A DNA stretch of 64,000 nt from Promethearchaeati archaeon (GTDB lineage Archaea > Asgardarchaeota > Heimdallarchaeia > Heimdallarchaeales > Heimdallarchaeaceae): positions 192,001-256,000 of the forward strand of contig JABLTJ010000001.1 of assembly GCA_013166775.1 (NCBI GenBank), given 5' to 3'. Each line of letters starts with the position of its first letter. The stretch's first letter is position 1. The translations under genes were made by a program, and so were the position numbers. The notes under the pieces are model-generated. The model had not been told where the DNA came from and did not search any database. It worked only from the letters and a program-made list of their open reading frames with translations. Positions 2,265-42,535 of the stretch are shown piece after piece.

Positions 2265-2366
2265 TGGTAGCGCCGAATGGACTTGAACCATTGATCTTCG
2301 GGTTTCTCAACCTTTAAGGTTAGAATTTATGAGCCCGACGGGTTTTCCATGCTACCCCACGGCGCT
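2265..2366 (-). tRNA. initiator tRNA-Met(CAT) with 24-nt intron (2304..2327) and encoded CCA
   Basis: Cloverleaf: AGCGCCG/CGGCGCT acceptor with A1-U72, GGG/CCC in the anticodon stem, anticodon CAT (2329-2331), TTCAAGT T-loop, ACCA end; CTCA/TGAG central helix with 3-nt bulges places the intron at 37/38. Confidence 0.95.
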
Positions 2367-36138: not shown

Positions 36139-39072
36139 CTACTCAAGTAGTAAGGCAGGTTTCATTGGTCTAGATTTTTGAGATTTGTTTTGCGGATCAT
36201 ATATATCTTTGTCATCTGATAGATGTATTAGTATTTCTGCATTCTCGAATCTACTGCTGATAAATTCTCTATATCCTAAAATTGCACTTTCTTGATCTTT
36301 TGCATTCAGCATTTCAATCCTGAAAATTGTAGGATCCCTTAACATCAGTTTTGCTTCATCAGCTATCTCTTTTATGTATTTGTTTAGTTTGTCACTCTCT
36401 TTAGCTGATGCCATTATCTTACCTATTTGCACTGCTTCATCTTTGAAGATATTTTTAGCAAGTTCGTATAGATCATTCTTCCAATCTGCGTTGATATATA
36501 TGTGAACCTTCTTTGGTTTGGTTTTGACTAATTTCACGATTTGATCAATATCATTTATCAGATCTGTCATGTACTTTGCTTGTAAAGCATATAGTATATC
36601 TTTATTATCAATCTCAATATCGGGTATTTGTTTAAGAGAAATATAGTCTTTATTTCCCATTCTTTCATTCAATTCCTCGCTAATATGAGGAATTGCAGGT
36701 GCCATGGTCACTACCATAATTTCGATAATTTCTCGTAATGCTGCTTTTTTCTCTGCTTCTGGCAAATGCTCTGCAAATTTGTGATACTCATCAATTACTC
36801 TGATGTTTGAATAGTATCCTTCTAAGATATATTCTCGAGCACTGAACCGCTCGATTGCTTCATTTGCTTTGCTTAAATTCGCTTTTACTGATGCAATGAA
36901 TACCTTAGAAAGGAAGGAATATTCAACTTTCTCGTTTAGAGAGATATTGGTTACGCTCAAGGCATATTCCCAGAATTTTCTTAATCTTTGAAGTGCGAAA
37001 TTCACTTCCTCTTCTTTCCACTCAAGAACAGTTTCAGGTGTAGCAATAGATGCTAGATGCAATCTTGTTAAGTCAACACTATATTTGTTTGGAACTTGTG
37101 CAATAGGGATAACATTTGGTTTACTCTTACTCATAGCTTCTCCATCACGACTCAACATTTCATTTAATGAGTAAGCAGGCAACCAATATTTCTCAGGAAA
37201 AACTGCAGCGTGATGAAATATAGCGAACGATAAGTGATTAGATATATGATGAACAGCTGTATGTCTAAGATCGTTAGGATACCAATATTCAAATTCATTT
37301 TTCATCAGATCTAATGTTTGCTTAGATACTCCAGTACTGTTACTTACTTCTTTGATACTTCCTTTTGACAGGAATACATAATCAAATAATTCTGGTTTTA
37401 ACTGCTCGGGTTGTATTTTATTTTCCTTTATGAGTCTGATAATTGTATAATATGCCATATAAATAACTGAATCACTCAACGATTCTATTATCCAACCTTC
37501 ACCTTTTGTGAAAGGAAATTCTGTTCCTAGTCCTCTTCTTCTGACACAAGGTCTCTTATCTAACCAATCAAATGTATTTTCAAAGCTTAGCCTATACTTA
37601 TCTGGAGTAATGAACATCTGATTTAATGCTTTGAATGCTTTTTCTTTCCATTCAGGATTACCATAATTTAGGAAATACTGGTTTTGAATTACTGCAACAA
37701 TGATCTGACCTCCACATCTGCAAAAAGCTTTAGTTGAAGGCTCGTAAATTGGTGTAGCTAAGTTTATCTCATATAGAGTGTCCGCAACTTTGTTCTTAGC
37801 TTCTTCTACTTTCAATCCTACATAGTCTCCAGTATTACTTTTCATAACGCCGGAATAATATTCATCCTTGTATATTGTTTGAGTTGCTTCCTCTAGTTTA
37901 TCTCTGTCTTCTTGAGATTTGACTCCTAGTTTCTGGCATATTTCAACAGCAGGAAATTCTCCATAACCCTTTACTTCTATAAGAGAAATTGGTTCAATTT
38001 GTTTCAGATTTTCAGAATTTAAATTATACTTAGAAATTGTTTTTTCATCTTTCTGCAAATCGACAATTGCTGCGCAATCATAAGGAGCATGCCCAGGAAC
38101 ACTATATACTACACCTGTTGCATGATTTGTGTCAACAAAAACGGCAGGATATACAGGTATTTTTCTTCCTGTTATTGGAACTTCTACATATACATCTAAT
38201 AACTCTTCACCCTTCAATTCACTCTTAATTTTAATCTCATGATTCTGTTCTAATAACTTCATGGTGGCTTCTTTTGAAACAATCCATATTTCTCCATCAA
38301 TAGAGATCTCATTATAACTTGCTTTAGGGTGTATCCAAATATTGGTGGCACCAAATATTGTTTCAGGTCGAAGAGTTGCAGCAACAAGGAAGATATTGTT
38401 ATCAAGTTTGAACTTAATGCCAACAAATTCATTAACTTCTACATTAAGTTCATCCCCATCTTGTATATCATCCTCTCCAACAGCATTCTTGTCATTTACA
38501 CACCATAAAATTGGATAATCTCCCTGTACTATCAGATTTTTATTATTTAGTATAGAATATTGCCATTCAATGAATTTGTTATATTCCGGATCACCTGTTG
38601 TGAATTGCCTGGTAGTATCAAGTGAATATCCCATTCCTAAGAAATCTTGGATGATTTTTTCGGCAAAATAATTAGCAACATTTTCTGGTTCTACAAAGGA
38701 AGAGACTACTTCATCAATTCTCTCTATAGTACTTTCATAATATGAGATAAAACCTCTCATTTTTTCCCATTCTTTCTCATCATTATTTTTAATTTTCCAA
38801 GATACTGCGAGAACTGGAGTTCCAGTTATATGAAAGCCCATTGGCCATAGAACATTGTATCCTTTTTGTCTTTTGAATCTTGCAAATATGTCTCCTAATC
38901 CATAAGTTCTGGCATGTCCTATATGAAGAGGAGAAGTTGCATAGGGATACGATACTGTTAGAAACCATTTTGGTTTTGAGCTGTCTACATTTGCGATAAA
39001 AATTTCATCTTCTTGCCATTTCTTCTGCCATTTTTTCTCTATTTTTCGAATTTCATCTAGAAAAGACACCAT
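36139..39072 (-). CDS. leuS: leucyl-tRNA synthetase (archaeal/eukaryotic type)
   Basis: PLHIGH, ATLRPET (CP1), SVPGHAPYD, IESLSDS and AMSKS. Confidence 0.95.
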   Translation of the reverse strand: MVSFLDEIRKIEKKWQKKWQEDEIFIANVDSSKPKWFLTVSYPYATSPLHIGHARTYGLGDIFARFKRQKGYNVLWPMGFHITGTPVLAVSWKIKNNDEKEWEKMRGFISYYESTIERIDEVVSSFVEPENVANYFAEKIIQDFLGMGYSLDTTRQFTTGDPEYNKFIEWQYSILNNKNLIVQGDYPILWCVNDKNAVGEDDIQDGDELNVEVNEFVGIKFKLDNNIFLVAATLRPETIFGATNIWIHPKASYNEISIDGEIWIVSKEATMKLLEQNHEIKIKSELKGEELLDVYVEVPITGRKIPVYPAVFVDTNHATGVVYSVPGHAPYDCAAIVDLQKDEKTISKYNLNSENLKQIEPISLIEVKGYGEFPAVEICQKLGVKSQEDRDKLEEATQTIYKDEYYSGVMKSNTGDYVGLKVEEAKNKVADTLYEINLATPIYEPSTKAFCRCGGQIIVAVIQNQYFLNYGNPEWKEKAFKALNQMFITPDKYRLSFENTFDWLDKRPCVRRRGLGTEFPFTKGEGWIIESLSDSVIYMAYYTIIRLIKENKIQPEQLKPELFDYVFLSKGSIKEVSNSTGVSKQTLDLMKNEFEYWYPNDLRHTAVHHISNHLSFAIFHHAAVFPEKYWLPAYSLNEMLSRDGEAMSKSKPNVIPIAQVPNKYSVDLTRLHLASIATPETVLEWKEEEVNFALQRLRKFWEYALSVTNISLNEKVEYSFLSKVFIASVKANLSKANEAIERFSAREYILEGYYSNIRVIDEYHKFAEHLPEAEKKAALREIIEIMVVTMAPAIPHISEELNERMGNKDYISLKQIPDIEIDNKDILYALQAKYMTDLINDIDQIVKLVKTKPKKVHIYINADWKNDLYELAKNIFKDEAVQIGKIMASAKESDKLNKYIKEIADEAKLMLRDPTIFRIEMLNAKDQESAILGYREFISSRFENAEILIHLSDDKDIYDPQNKSQKSRPMKPALLLE

Positions 39073-39285
39073 TTACATCTCCTTGAATTGTGTTTTTTTC
39101 TTGTGCTCTGAAACAGCTTCTATAATTATGTTTTGAAAAGCTAAAGTAATCAATAAAAGACTTGTCTACTGACATAATAATGCTGTTAAAAACACAAGAA
39201 ACCTGGAAACCACTAAAATAGCTTTCCTTCTTATCTTGAAAGAAGAACACGATACCCCATTTTGGTTTCCTCAATATACAGGTGA
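39073..39285 (-). promoter_or_regulatory. structured about 200-nt leuS leader containing uORF MGYRVLLSR (39231..39260)
   Basis: Nested helices ACCTG/CAGGT, GGAAACCA/TGGTTTCC, AAAATGG/CTATTTT, TTCTTCT/AGAAGGA; second domain TTCTTGTGTTTT/AGAGCACAAGAA, AACAGC/GCTGTT, ATTATGT/ACATAAT. Confidence 0.55.
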
Positions 39286-39335
39286 TTGTAGCATTTATTA
39301 ATATTTTCTAATTTGTTAAAAACAAATCTTACAGA

Positions 39336-40424
39336 TTAATCATGTAATATTGATTTAAAAACCAAGTATTTTTCAACCAAAACTGTCATTTCTTCTTCAG
39401 TCATATTTGGATTTAAGTCAGCTAATATGTTTTTGATTCCTTGTTTAACGTATGCTGTAGGATTTTTACAACTAATTAAACAAATGAAGTTATCATGTTC
39501 CTCAATAATTAAAGAATAAACTCCTAAATCGATTTCTTTGGGAAAAACTTCTTTACCAATCAGTTCTCCAGCGAAAGAAGAAAAAGCTCTTGTAATGCTT
39601 GGTATCATCATTCCCTCCAAACCTGATCCTTTTTGAAGTGATGCTGAATAAACAACATAGCCATCTTTGTTATAAATAAAAATTGAGGATATTTCAGATG
39701 AGTAATAAAAAGCTTCAACTCCACCAAGGTAAATTGAATAACTCATAAGAAGAGCTCCCACAGCTACTGAAATTAATTCCATATGGAGCAAAACTATTTC
39801 GTTCGTAATTGCGAAGATTACTTTTCTTACTATGTAGATAATAATACTGGCAAAATAAGCAATAATCACACCCACAATCATAACTAATAATGTTTTTCTA
39901 TGGTTTTTTTCTAAGAACAAAATCTGTCTTATCAGGTAACCGAGTAAAACTGAACCTGCAAAAATAACTAGAAATCCATCAAAGAAAATCCACACATAAC
40001 CAGTATTAGCTATATAGAAATCCAGTTTACCAGAAGTGACCTCTTGTAAAATAATGCTATAATCAGATGACAAAGTTGTACCTACTAACCCTCCAAATAG
40101 GAAGAATGCTATAACAACAAGAGTTGAATTCAATAATTGTCTCGACGTAAGGGTTCTTACAAATAATATTGTAGCAACCATTGCTATCATACTACTAATT
40201 GTGTTGAATTTTGACAAGAATAATGCAGCACTTTCATTATGGATTTGGCTCACATAAACCAGTATCATATCCCCTATTATCCACAACATGATAAAAACAA
40301 TTAATGATATGAAATAATAAACAGAGGTTGAGGAAGTTTTTATTTGCTTCATAATTACTAGGATCAAACCAATAATAAGTGCGATGATTGAAAAAATACC
40401 TATCCCGTAAGACACCCAAACCAT
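39336..40424 (-). CDS. 7-TM membrane protein with C-terminal longin/roadblock-like domain
   Basis: About 7 hydrophobic helices, then ISSIFIYNKDGYVVYS...AFSSFAGEL...KEIDLG beta-beta-alpha-beta pattern. Confidence 0.55.
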   Translation of the reverse strand: MVWVSYGIGIFSIIALIIGLILVIMKQIKTSSTSVYYFISLIVFIMLWIIGDMILVYVSQIHNESAALFLSKFNTISSMIAMVATILFVRTLTSRQLLNSTLVVIAFFLFGGLVGTTLSSDYSIILQEVTSGKLDFYIANTGYVWIFFDGFLVIFAGSVLLGYLIRQILFLEKNHRKTLLVMIVGVIIAYFASIIIYIVRKVIFAITNEIVLLHMELISVAVGALLMSYSIYLGGVEAFYYSSEISSIFIYNKDGYVVYSASLQKGSGLEGMMIPSITRAFSSFAGELIGKEVFPKEIDLGVYSLIIEEHDNFICLISCKNPTAYVKQGIKNILADLNPNMTEEEMTVLVEKYLVFKSILHD

Positions 40425-42424: not shown

Positions 42425-42535
42425 CTTATCACCTGTAAAATTTTTCTCAAGAGGACCGCGCACCTACTTAACAGTAGGGAAATTAAAAAACTGCTATTTA
42501 ATTGTTTCATATTCACCTAGCATTGTCCTCAAACG
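42425..42535 (-). promoter_or_regulatory. structured thrS leader containing uORF MLGEYETIK (42494..42523)
   Basis: Closing helix GAGGAC/GTCCTC; hairpin CCTAC-TGTTAA-GTAGG; competing TGCTA/TAGCA and AATTAAA/TTTAATT; TATA-like TTTTTAAAT about 20 nt upstream. Confidence 0.45.

Follow-up and report, generated by a model that had tools for sequence, protein, structure and literature searches.

A leader ORF with a fixed leucine codon, enclosed in a nested hairpin upstream of leuS in Heimdallarchaeia, as a likely gauge of leucyl-tRNA charging

The leuS gene of a Heimdallarchaeaceae archaeon is preceded by a hairpin, domain 1, that encloses a Shine-Dalgarno (SD) sequence and a nine-codon ORF with a conserved leucine codon. 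Judging from sequence, we favor, with some reserve, a role for domain 1 in the cis control of leuS: its leader peptide would gauge the charging of Leu-tRNA, and the output would most likely be premature termination. The DNA analyzed is a stretch of 64,000 nucleotides, which we call the window. A preliminary description of it had proposed an unannotated, minus-strand cis-regulatory element of leuS. That general inference stands, but its specifics fail beyond the closest relatives. The SD and nine-codon ORF inside domain 1, the decisive feature here, were absent from that reading.

In the window, leuS lies at 36139..39072 on the minus strand and encodes an archaeal-type leucyl-tRNA synthetase (LeuRS) of 977 aa. 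The protein matches the LeuRS profiles NF008957 (1055.6 bits) and TIGR00395 (885 bits), and its closest named record comes from a 'Candidatus Heimdallarchaeota' MAG, with 82% identity over the N-terminus. A spacer of 263 nt separates leuS from the upstream gene (39336..40424) and contains both hairpin domains, domain 1 and domain 2. Taken whole, it folds better on the minus strand (z -3.04) than on the plus strand (z -1.33). The upstream gene, a 362-aa minus-strand ORF flanked by thrS and leuS, matched nothing in NCBIfam, and most of the genus keeps its C-terminal end beside leuS. Elsewhere in the window, at 2268..2366 on the minus strand, is an intron-containing tRNA gene (Rfam, 52 bits) that ARAGORN misses in its default mode.

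Might the spacer belong to a known RNA family? At gathering scores, an Rfam scan of the spacer matched no family; at E <= 10 it returned chance miRNA-like hairpin matches only, and the T-box was still absent. The T-box riboswitch (RF00230) is hence not supported, in agreement with the preliminary description, which had seen no T-box consensus; we saw no T-box features either. A UGGU complementary to a tRNA ACCA end had also been pointed out. It is indeed in the window, but relatives have AGGU, UAGU or UUGU, and the T-box hallmark UGGN is therefore not kept.

The features of domain 1 and its surroundings are as follows.

39294..39301, minus strand: TATA box TTAATAAA of the leader promoter, starting 41 nt upstream of the ATG of the upstream ORF (uORF)
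39264..39272, minus strand: SD of the uORF, GAGGAAACC, which is also the 5' arm of helix P1; its core GAGG is at 39272..39269 and it pairs with 39205..39212 in the MFE fold
39231..39260, minus strand: leader ORF MGYRVLLSR* (9 codons), ATG GGG TAT CGT GTT CTT CTT TCA AGA TAA
39240..39245, minus strand: two Leu codons, CUU CUU, within the 5' arm of helix P3; the conserved sensor, codon 6, is the first of them (39245..39243)
39205..39212, minus strand: P1 3' arm, UGGUUUCC; as an anti-SD it closes the hairpin over the uORF, in the MFE fold and in relatives
39188..39192, minus strand: T5 run, candidate oligo-T pause or termination signal, 12 nt after P1
39079..39084, minus strand: leuS SD, AAGGAG; relatives have GGAGG or GGTGA 5-9 nt before the leuS start

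The sequence TTAATAA or TTTAATAA is kept at the TATA position across genus-level leaders. Across the genome, the frequency of TATA-like words is highest 36-50 nt before start codons that follow an SD; the TATA box 41 nt before the uORF ATG is therefore a promoter at a normal distance for a small ORF, and the transcript is expected to start at about GAGG. The spacing from GAGG to the ATG in the window's leader is 8 nt. As in an attenuator, a short co-oriented leader ORF with its own ribosome-binding site thus lies upstream of the gene, and from these sequence signals we infer that the ORF is translated.

Domain 1 (39201..39275, minus strand) has an MFE of -20.8 kcal/mol and a z-score of -2.93, with 1 of 200 shuffles folding as well. 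The nested hairpin reads as had been described. It is made of P1 (GGAAACCA/UGGUUUCC), whose 5' arm holds the SD; P2 (UGGGGUA/UAUUUUA), whose 5' arm is the start-codon region; and P3 (UUCUUCUU/AAGAAGGA; 39240..39247 paired with 39225..39232), whose 5' arm holds the Leu codons. In the MFE fold, the uORF stop codon falls at the junction of the apical loop and the P3 3' arm. P3 is present in this fold and in the consensus folds of families f5 and f7.

We fetched leuS upstream regions from 83 Heimdallarchaeia genomes of families f1-f7 and examined 71 leaders. The same arrangement precedes leuS in 60 of the 71 across f1-f7, these sequences from relatives not being independent of one another: an SD, a start codon, three to four variable codons, Val-Leu, and a stop 0-7 codons after. 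The SD core is 7-9 nt from the start codon in 57 of the 60, and the start codon is ATG in 55, GTG in 4 and TTG in 1. Val-Leu (GUU CUN) forms codons 5-6, or codons 6-7 in three genera. The sensor codon is CUN in every one of the 60 leaders (CUU 41, CUC 16, CUA 3), and the codon preceding it is GUU in 55. Codon -2 relative to the sensor takes ten forms, including the synonymous pairs CGT/CGC, TGT/TGC, TAC/TAT and AGT/AGC. Codon +1 takes 18 forms, the residue after Leu being free, and therefore just one Leu codon is conserved. The leader peptides include MGYRVLL.. (the window's genus), MTGECVLPI, MKGDYVLLGKQLFY, MRNSVLL.., MRNYVLP., MRDSVLL.. and MRYCVLLS.

The leader occurs with both LeuRS types of the class, which are mutually 35-40% identical over the N-terminal 200 aa. 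Over the same stretch, the class's enzymes are either 55-100% or 35-40% identical to that of the window. A few genomes carry both types (class-level leuS search; G020:C14, G070:C333). In G020, the window-type leuS copy has no uORF, and the second copy has the uORF MRNCLLNN*.

A phylum sample placed the leader also in Asgard families f25, f19, f10, f26, f17 and part of f11; in this sample it was not seen in f14, f23 or f16. We found it as well before leuS in a Bathyarchaeia MAG (JBEKHN010000013, L058), with a GTG start, the peptide MRNSVLCS* and a P1 of UGUCUGA/UCAGACA, and in the Promethearchaeota MAG H2M.186 (L111), with a GTG start and the peptide MGYCILLR*. Leaders outside the class point to either an old origin or transfer of leuS together with its leader. 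The Nitrosopumilaceae peptides MKNSILQ and MRNSILQ, encoded ~290 nt upstream of leuS, were excluded; they appear inside the upstream gene.

Five genomes of the window's genus, g1 (L008, L020-L023), and some f3 genomes are without the element. Compared with L006, the first of these (L008, genome G010) lacks the uORF as well as the 5' half of domain 1. The breakpoint falls between a copy of GATATCTGTTT at the upstream gene's end and a second copy in domain 1, a pattern that suggests either deletion between direct repeats or an assembly artifact.

A covariance model of the genus-level element, R1, placed the P1 3' arm two columns off and therefore worked mainly through sequence. It matched 17 of the 24 genomes of the genus and one other genus, and missed diverged versions. 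There was one R1 match per genome, and every match whose coordinates were compared sits just upstream of leuS. The spacer is likewise present once in its own 3.85-Mb assembly. Because the element is single-copy, we rejected the reading as a MITE-like or dispersed repeat, a recurrence that had earlier been raised as a danger to the regulatory interpretation.

How well is the structure kept? In most of the 60 leaders, the SD, the AUG and the sensor stretch GUUCU are paired, in the MFE fold, with RNA that follows the ORF. Consensus folds of g1, f5 and f7 retain P1-P3, with 3' arms that differ between families; equivalent anti-SD arms (CCUC, UUUCC, GUCCUC) are found in other families and in the leaders of thrS, proS and ileS. 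The pairings in orthologous leaders are kept with some compensatory changes, as would be expected from the preliminary description: A-U to G-C in P1 of relatives, GGUAUC/GAUAUC to GGAAUC/GAUUUU between families (read by eye), and ACGUUCUC/GAGAACGU to GCGUUCUU/GAGAACGC within f5. Within families such changes are few because the 5' side barely varies. Duplex z-scores of P1 and P3 are strong in f5 only, power being low elsewhere. In f5, the anti-SD CCUCA can pair with either UGAGG copy, the SD or AUG-AGG.

One nested hairpin (P1-P3), which a stalled ribosome would prevent, is thus the conserved structure. We sought a conserved antiterminator alternative (2:3-type pairing) in the leaders and found none. 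Pairing of CUUCUU, the Leu codons, with the leuS SD AAGGAG is possible in the window; we dropped it as a general mechanism because inspection of the thrS and proS leaders gave no equivalent.

The sensor codon is CUN throughout although TTR makes up 48% of the Leu codons in the genome, and the Val codon is GUU in 55 of 60 leaders although GUU makes up 48% of Val codons. GUUCU is thus conserved beyond coding need, and therefore an RNA-level constraint, P3 pairing, overlaps the coding constraint. Perhaps, then, the core is a structured RNA read directly by LeuRS, by tRNA(Leu) in T-box-like codon-anticodon pairing, or by another protein, with an incidental ORF? Conservation of GUUCU and of the purine-rich AUGAGGAAU / AUGGGGUAU beyond synonymous-site expectation would suit such a reading, as would a sensor codon within a helix and the UGGU of the window. 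However, that UGGU is not conserved, the T-box gives no match even at E <= 10, and in every version an ORF can be read from an in-frame ATG, GTG or TTG, with an SD 7-9 nt away, to a stop. Insertions and deletions between the start and the core are moreover whole codons. We consider direct reading of the RNA improbable, and the leaders of other synthetase genes, described below, also bear on it.

Other synthetase genes of the window's own genome have the same leader design, and these leaders are conserved in relatives. Their uORFs are as follows.

42494..42523, minus strand: thrS uORF MLGEYETIK*, with Thr as codon 7, preceded by TTGAGGACA
Own genome, before proS (C1:266221-267657; L177/L221): uORF MIGEFVPK*, conserved in relatives
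Own genome, before ileS (C1:153737-156910; L189/L251): uORF MDREIRY*, conserved in relatives
Own genome, before trpS (C52:45447-46574; L182/L331): uORF MRVINWTGINQL*, conserved in relatives

Every one of the family's five genera has a thrS uORF of the form M-x-G-E-[YCW]-E-T; the leader in the window also has a P1 of GAGGAC/GUCCUC, and T-runs after the stop and before the thrS SD. Translation of thrS itself probably begins not at the GTG at 42463 but ~39 nt further downstream, at ATG GTT. The proS leader reads M-x(0-2)-G-[ED]-[FYCG]-[VL]-P in f1-f4. For ileS, the peptide begins MDREI in f1, with the variants MDHQI and MDRQI in f2 and f4 and MC[CY]FI in f3. The trpS uORF, M[RS]V[IV][NT]W, is apparently leaderless. 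The leuS leaders of three other genera are in the thrS/proS frame, as G-E-C-V-L and G-D-Y-V-L (MTGECVL, MKGDYVLL); the three genes thus share a frame whose fifth residue, Leu, Thr or Pro, matches the gene downstream. Background frequencies of the residues concerned are 0.098 for L, 0.055 for T, 0.037 for P, 0.096 for I and 0.011 for W. As in an attenuator, a cognate regulatory codon stands at a conserved position, here as a single codon and not as a run.

From the AUG to the conserved core, leaders differ in length by whole codons (0, 1 or 2 extra). Of all the arguments for ribosomes reading the ORFs, and for the conserved codon as a reporter of its cognate charged tRNA, this one is the strongest. 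Nor would a protein-specific operator predict that four or five synthetases, from both classes, use one frame and differ in the cognate codon alone.

Further candidate uORFs with the cognate residue at or near the expected place are, all in the own genome, MVEQREYEMVSRKGI* before metG (C54:53178), MMPLEYQ* before tyrS (C54:122311), followed by CCTCC, and GTG-TWNFINSF* before pheS (C56:5559). In the own genome, no cognate uORF was found before serS, glyS, hisS, aspS or asnS, and none was clear before valS. The proS and ileS genes of f7 and the ileS gene of f5 are without a uORF. A genome-wide regular-expression search for SD-led M-x-G-[ED] uORFs returned proS and noise only.

The uORFs are followed by oligo-T. 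Within 20 nt after P1, 28 of 53 leuS leaders have a run of T>=5, compared with 3 of 53 for A>=5. Runs of T>=5 that start 10-30 nt after the sensor codon occur in 17 of 22 thrS, 26 of 38 ileS and 18 of 27 trpS leaders, with A-run controls of 0-1; by the same measure, 15 of 60 leuS leaders have a T-run and 6 of 60 an A-run. Archaeal polymerases terminate at oligo(dT) tracts or through FttA, the latter needing uncoupling from translation (PMC13681488). Extrapolating from bacterial footprints, we estimate that a polymerase at the U-run would stand about one ribosome-plus-polymerase footprint beyond the sensor codon, which would fit a decision made while the lead ribosome decodes that codon.

Comparison across leaders establishes the predicted ORF with its SD, a cognate codon at a fixed place, nested helices and U-run enrichment, from which a mechanism can be proposed. 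Transcription would start ~25 nt after the TATA box, at or near GAGG, and the first ~70 nt of RNA would carry the SD and the nine-codon ORF. The SD, start-codon region and Val-Leu codons would be the 5' arms of nested P1-P3; since the 3' arms are made only once the ORF has been transcribed, the first ribosome would load only co-transcriptionally. Leu codon 6 would gauge Leu-tRNA(Leu), the product of LeuRS. With charged tRNA scarce, the ribosome would wait on GUU-CUN and hold the 5' arms, and the hairpin would be blocked. With charged tRNA plentiful, the ribosome would reach the apical-loop stop and leave, and the hairpin would close. The state of the RNA, or the position of the ribosome relative to polymerase at the oligo-U runs, would then set the flow of polymerase into leuS.

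Stalling would thus be the signal and premature termination the output. By analogy with pheM-pheST and T-boxes, a shortage of Leu-tRNA would be expected to raise leuS expression. If a closed hairpin aids termination, a stalled ribosome would give read-through, a homeostatic response of the pheM-pheST kind. FttA-like termination, which would need naked RNA, could reverse the sign, with stalling leading to termination.

Must the output be premature termination? A translated and regulatory uORF could act otherwise, through stalling that remodels the 5' hairpin and alters mRNA stability or later ribosome loading, or as a constitutive damper that senses nothing. Stem-loops at the 5' end affect 5'-3' exonucleases, and P1 begins close to where the transcript is predicted to start. 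The f5 anti-SD CCUCA, with its two UGAGG partners, resembles a translation-type switch. The leaders of f7 and f4 often have no T5 run after P1, and archaeal oligo-T termination is not known to require a hairpin (PMC13681488). Yet U-runs are strongly enriched over A-runs beside the sensor or P1, the uORF lies anywhere from 84 to 291 nt from the leuS SD, depending on the leader, with no conserved pairing to that main SD, and a constitutive damper would leave the fixed cognate codon in five synthetase leaders unexplained. We therefore hold an output other than termination to be rather unlikely, and keep to the reading in which the uORF governs premature termination.

Domain 2 behaves differently from domain 1 in relatives. 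Its features in the window are as follows.

39098..39200, minus strand: domain 2, a long genus-specific hairpin with a 12-bp outer helix, AACAGC/GCUGUU and AUUAUGU/ACAUAAU
39151..39166, minus strand: T-rich, TATA-like motif in the domain 2 loop, GACAAGTCTTTTATTG in the window and AAGATAACGCTTTTAAT in relatives

The domain folds well in the window (39085..39200, minus strand; MFE -25.6 kcal/mol, z -3.56, 0 of 200 shuffles as good), so that both domains are better than shuffled sequence. The plus strand folds worse for domain 1 (z -2.24) and for domain 2 (z -1.53), which bears out the earlier preference for a minus-strand RNA. The helices that had been described for domain 2 do form in the window, but it is absent outside the window's genus, and among 17 genus-level leaders only AACAGC (39182..39187) / GCUGUU (39112..39117) is conserved: AACAGY/RCUGUU is 98% paired, with A-U to U-A swaps in six, while the 12-bp outer helix pairs in ~63% of cells (a tally of per-pair counts) and the 7-bp inner helix in 58%. 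A similar fate befell the proposed 10-bp alternative register with AAAAACACAA (39088..39097), which exists in the window but is 61% paired in the 17 leaders.

The T-rich motif in the domain 2 loop is retained in L020-L023, four genomes without domain 1, and a motif [AG]GT[AG]AC[TG]CTTTTAA recurs downstream of the leuS, ileS and metG uORFs. The motif of domain 2 may be a second promoter (BRE/TATA-like), or a U-run, shared RNA or termination element. A second promoter here could bypass the leader.

Such a promoter suggests another arrangement, in which domain 1 is an independent short transcript, a small RNA or micropeptide gene, that ends at the T-run following P1, leuS is transcribed from its own promoter in domain 2, and their linkage is shared history. 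Persistence of the TATA-like AAGATAACGCTTTTAAT in L020-L023 despite the domain 1 deletion agrees with this, and so do the similar motifs after the ileS and metG uORFs. On the other hand, the domain 2 TATA-like motif lies farther from the leuS start (~90 nt) than the usual 36-50 nt, and in f3 only 84-97 nt separate the uORF stop from the start of leuS, an interval in which no second TATA-like element was seen. The linkage to leuS also extends across two LeuRS types and several Asgard families, and the cognate-codon rule binds each uORF to its downstream synthetase. We give an independent transcript little credence and prefer domain 1 as a leader of leuS.

Does the design extend beyond leuS? It seems to us an even call that Asgard and at least some other archaea have lineage-wide leader-peptide gauges for synthetase genes, built on a shared scaffold (TATA, SD, 6-14 codon ORF, SD-sequestering nested hairpin, oligo-U) in which the sensor codon alone is swapped (Leu, Thr, Pro, Ile, Trp). 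If true, this would be ribosome-mediated attenuation in Archaea that uses an oligo-T/FttA termination machinery related to the eukaryotic one. The ribosome may be held at the decision point by an SD-like run of purines that lies 7-8 nt upstream of the sensor codon. The leader family would explain how these organisms, with no T-boxes, adjust synthetase supply to tRNA charging. It would offer, within the archaea most closely related to eukaryotes, a sequence-defined natural system for crosstalk between ribosome and RNA polymerase at oligo-T/FttA sites. It would also yield an annotation rule for unannotated archaeal regulatory ORFs: an SD, a short ORF and a cognate codon at codon 5-7.

Leader-peptide attenuation is a bacterial mechanism that relies on coupled transcription and translation, and the literature we searched contained no published example from archaea. 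The number of regulatory codons in classical attenuators is two to seven, with two in the trp leader. Such attenuators have been predicted before leuS and trpS of Streptomyces (PMC1262725). Together with E. coli pheM-pheST, these are the closest known systems. They share with the leader described here a short ORF with its own ribosome-binding site directly upstream of a synthetase gene, cognate codons in that ORF, RNA helices around it and a U-run after it. In contrast, the present leader is archaeal, has one conserved regulatory codon and no identified antiterminator, and places the whole ORF and its SD in a single nested hairpin instead of 1:2, 2:3 and 3:4 alternatives. Termination in archaea, by oligo-T and/or FttA, also differs from hairpin-dependent intrinsic terminators.

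The T-box (RF00230), by which Firmicutes control synthetases through tRNA sensing, likewise uses a single cognate specifier codon at a fixed place, on a scaffold reused among synthetases. The leader here differs in having no sequence or structure match to the T-box, no conserved UGGN bulge and no T-box sequence. Its codon is in frame with an SD-led start and a stop, as if read by a ribosome and not by a naked tRNA. The fungal arginine attenuator peptide, a eukaryotic regulatory uORF, and bacterial arrest peptides are similar in having a very short upstream ORF with conserved residues before the sensing position, which here are G-[ED]-[YFC]-[VE]-X or M-R-N-x-V-L. However, these residues coincide with SD-like purine runs (GGUGA, GAGGA) and helix arms, and so the constraint may be on the RNA. 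Unlike those systems, nothing here suggests small-molecule-dependent arrest, and initiation is SD-dependent and not by scanning. Finally, in the E. coli thrS-type operator, leader hairpins that imitate the anticodon arm of the cognate tRNA are bound by the synthetase; the design common to five synthetases argues against an enzyme-specific operator of that kind.
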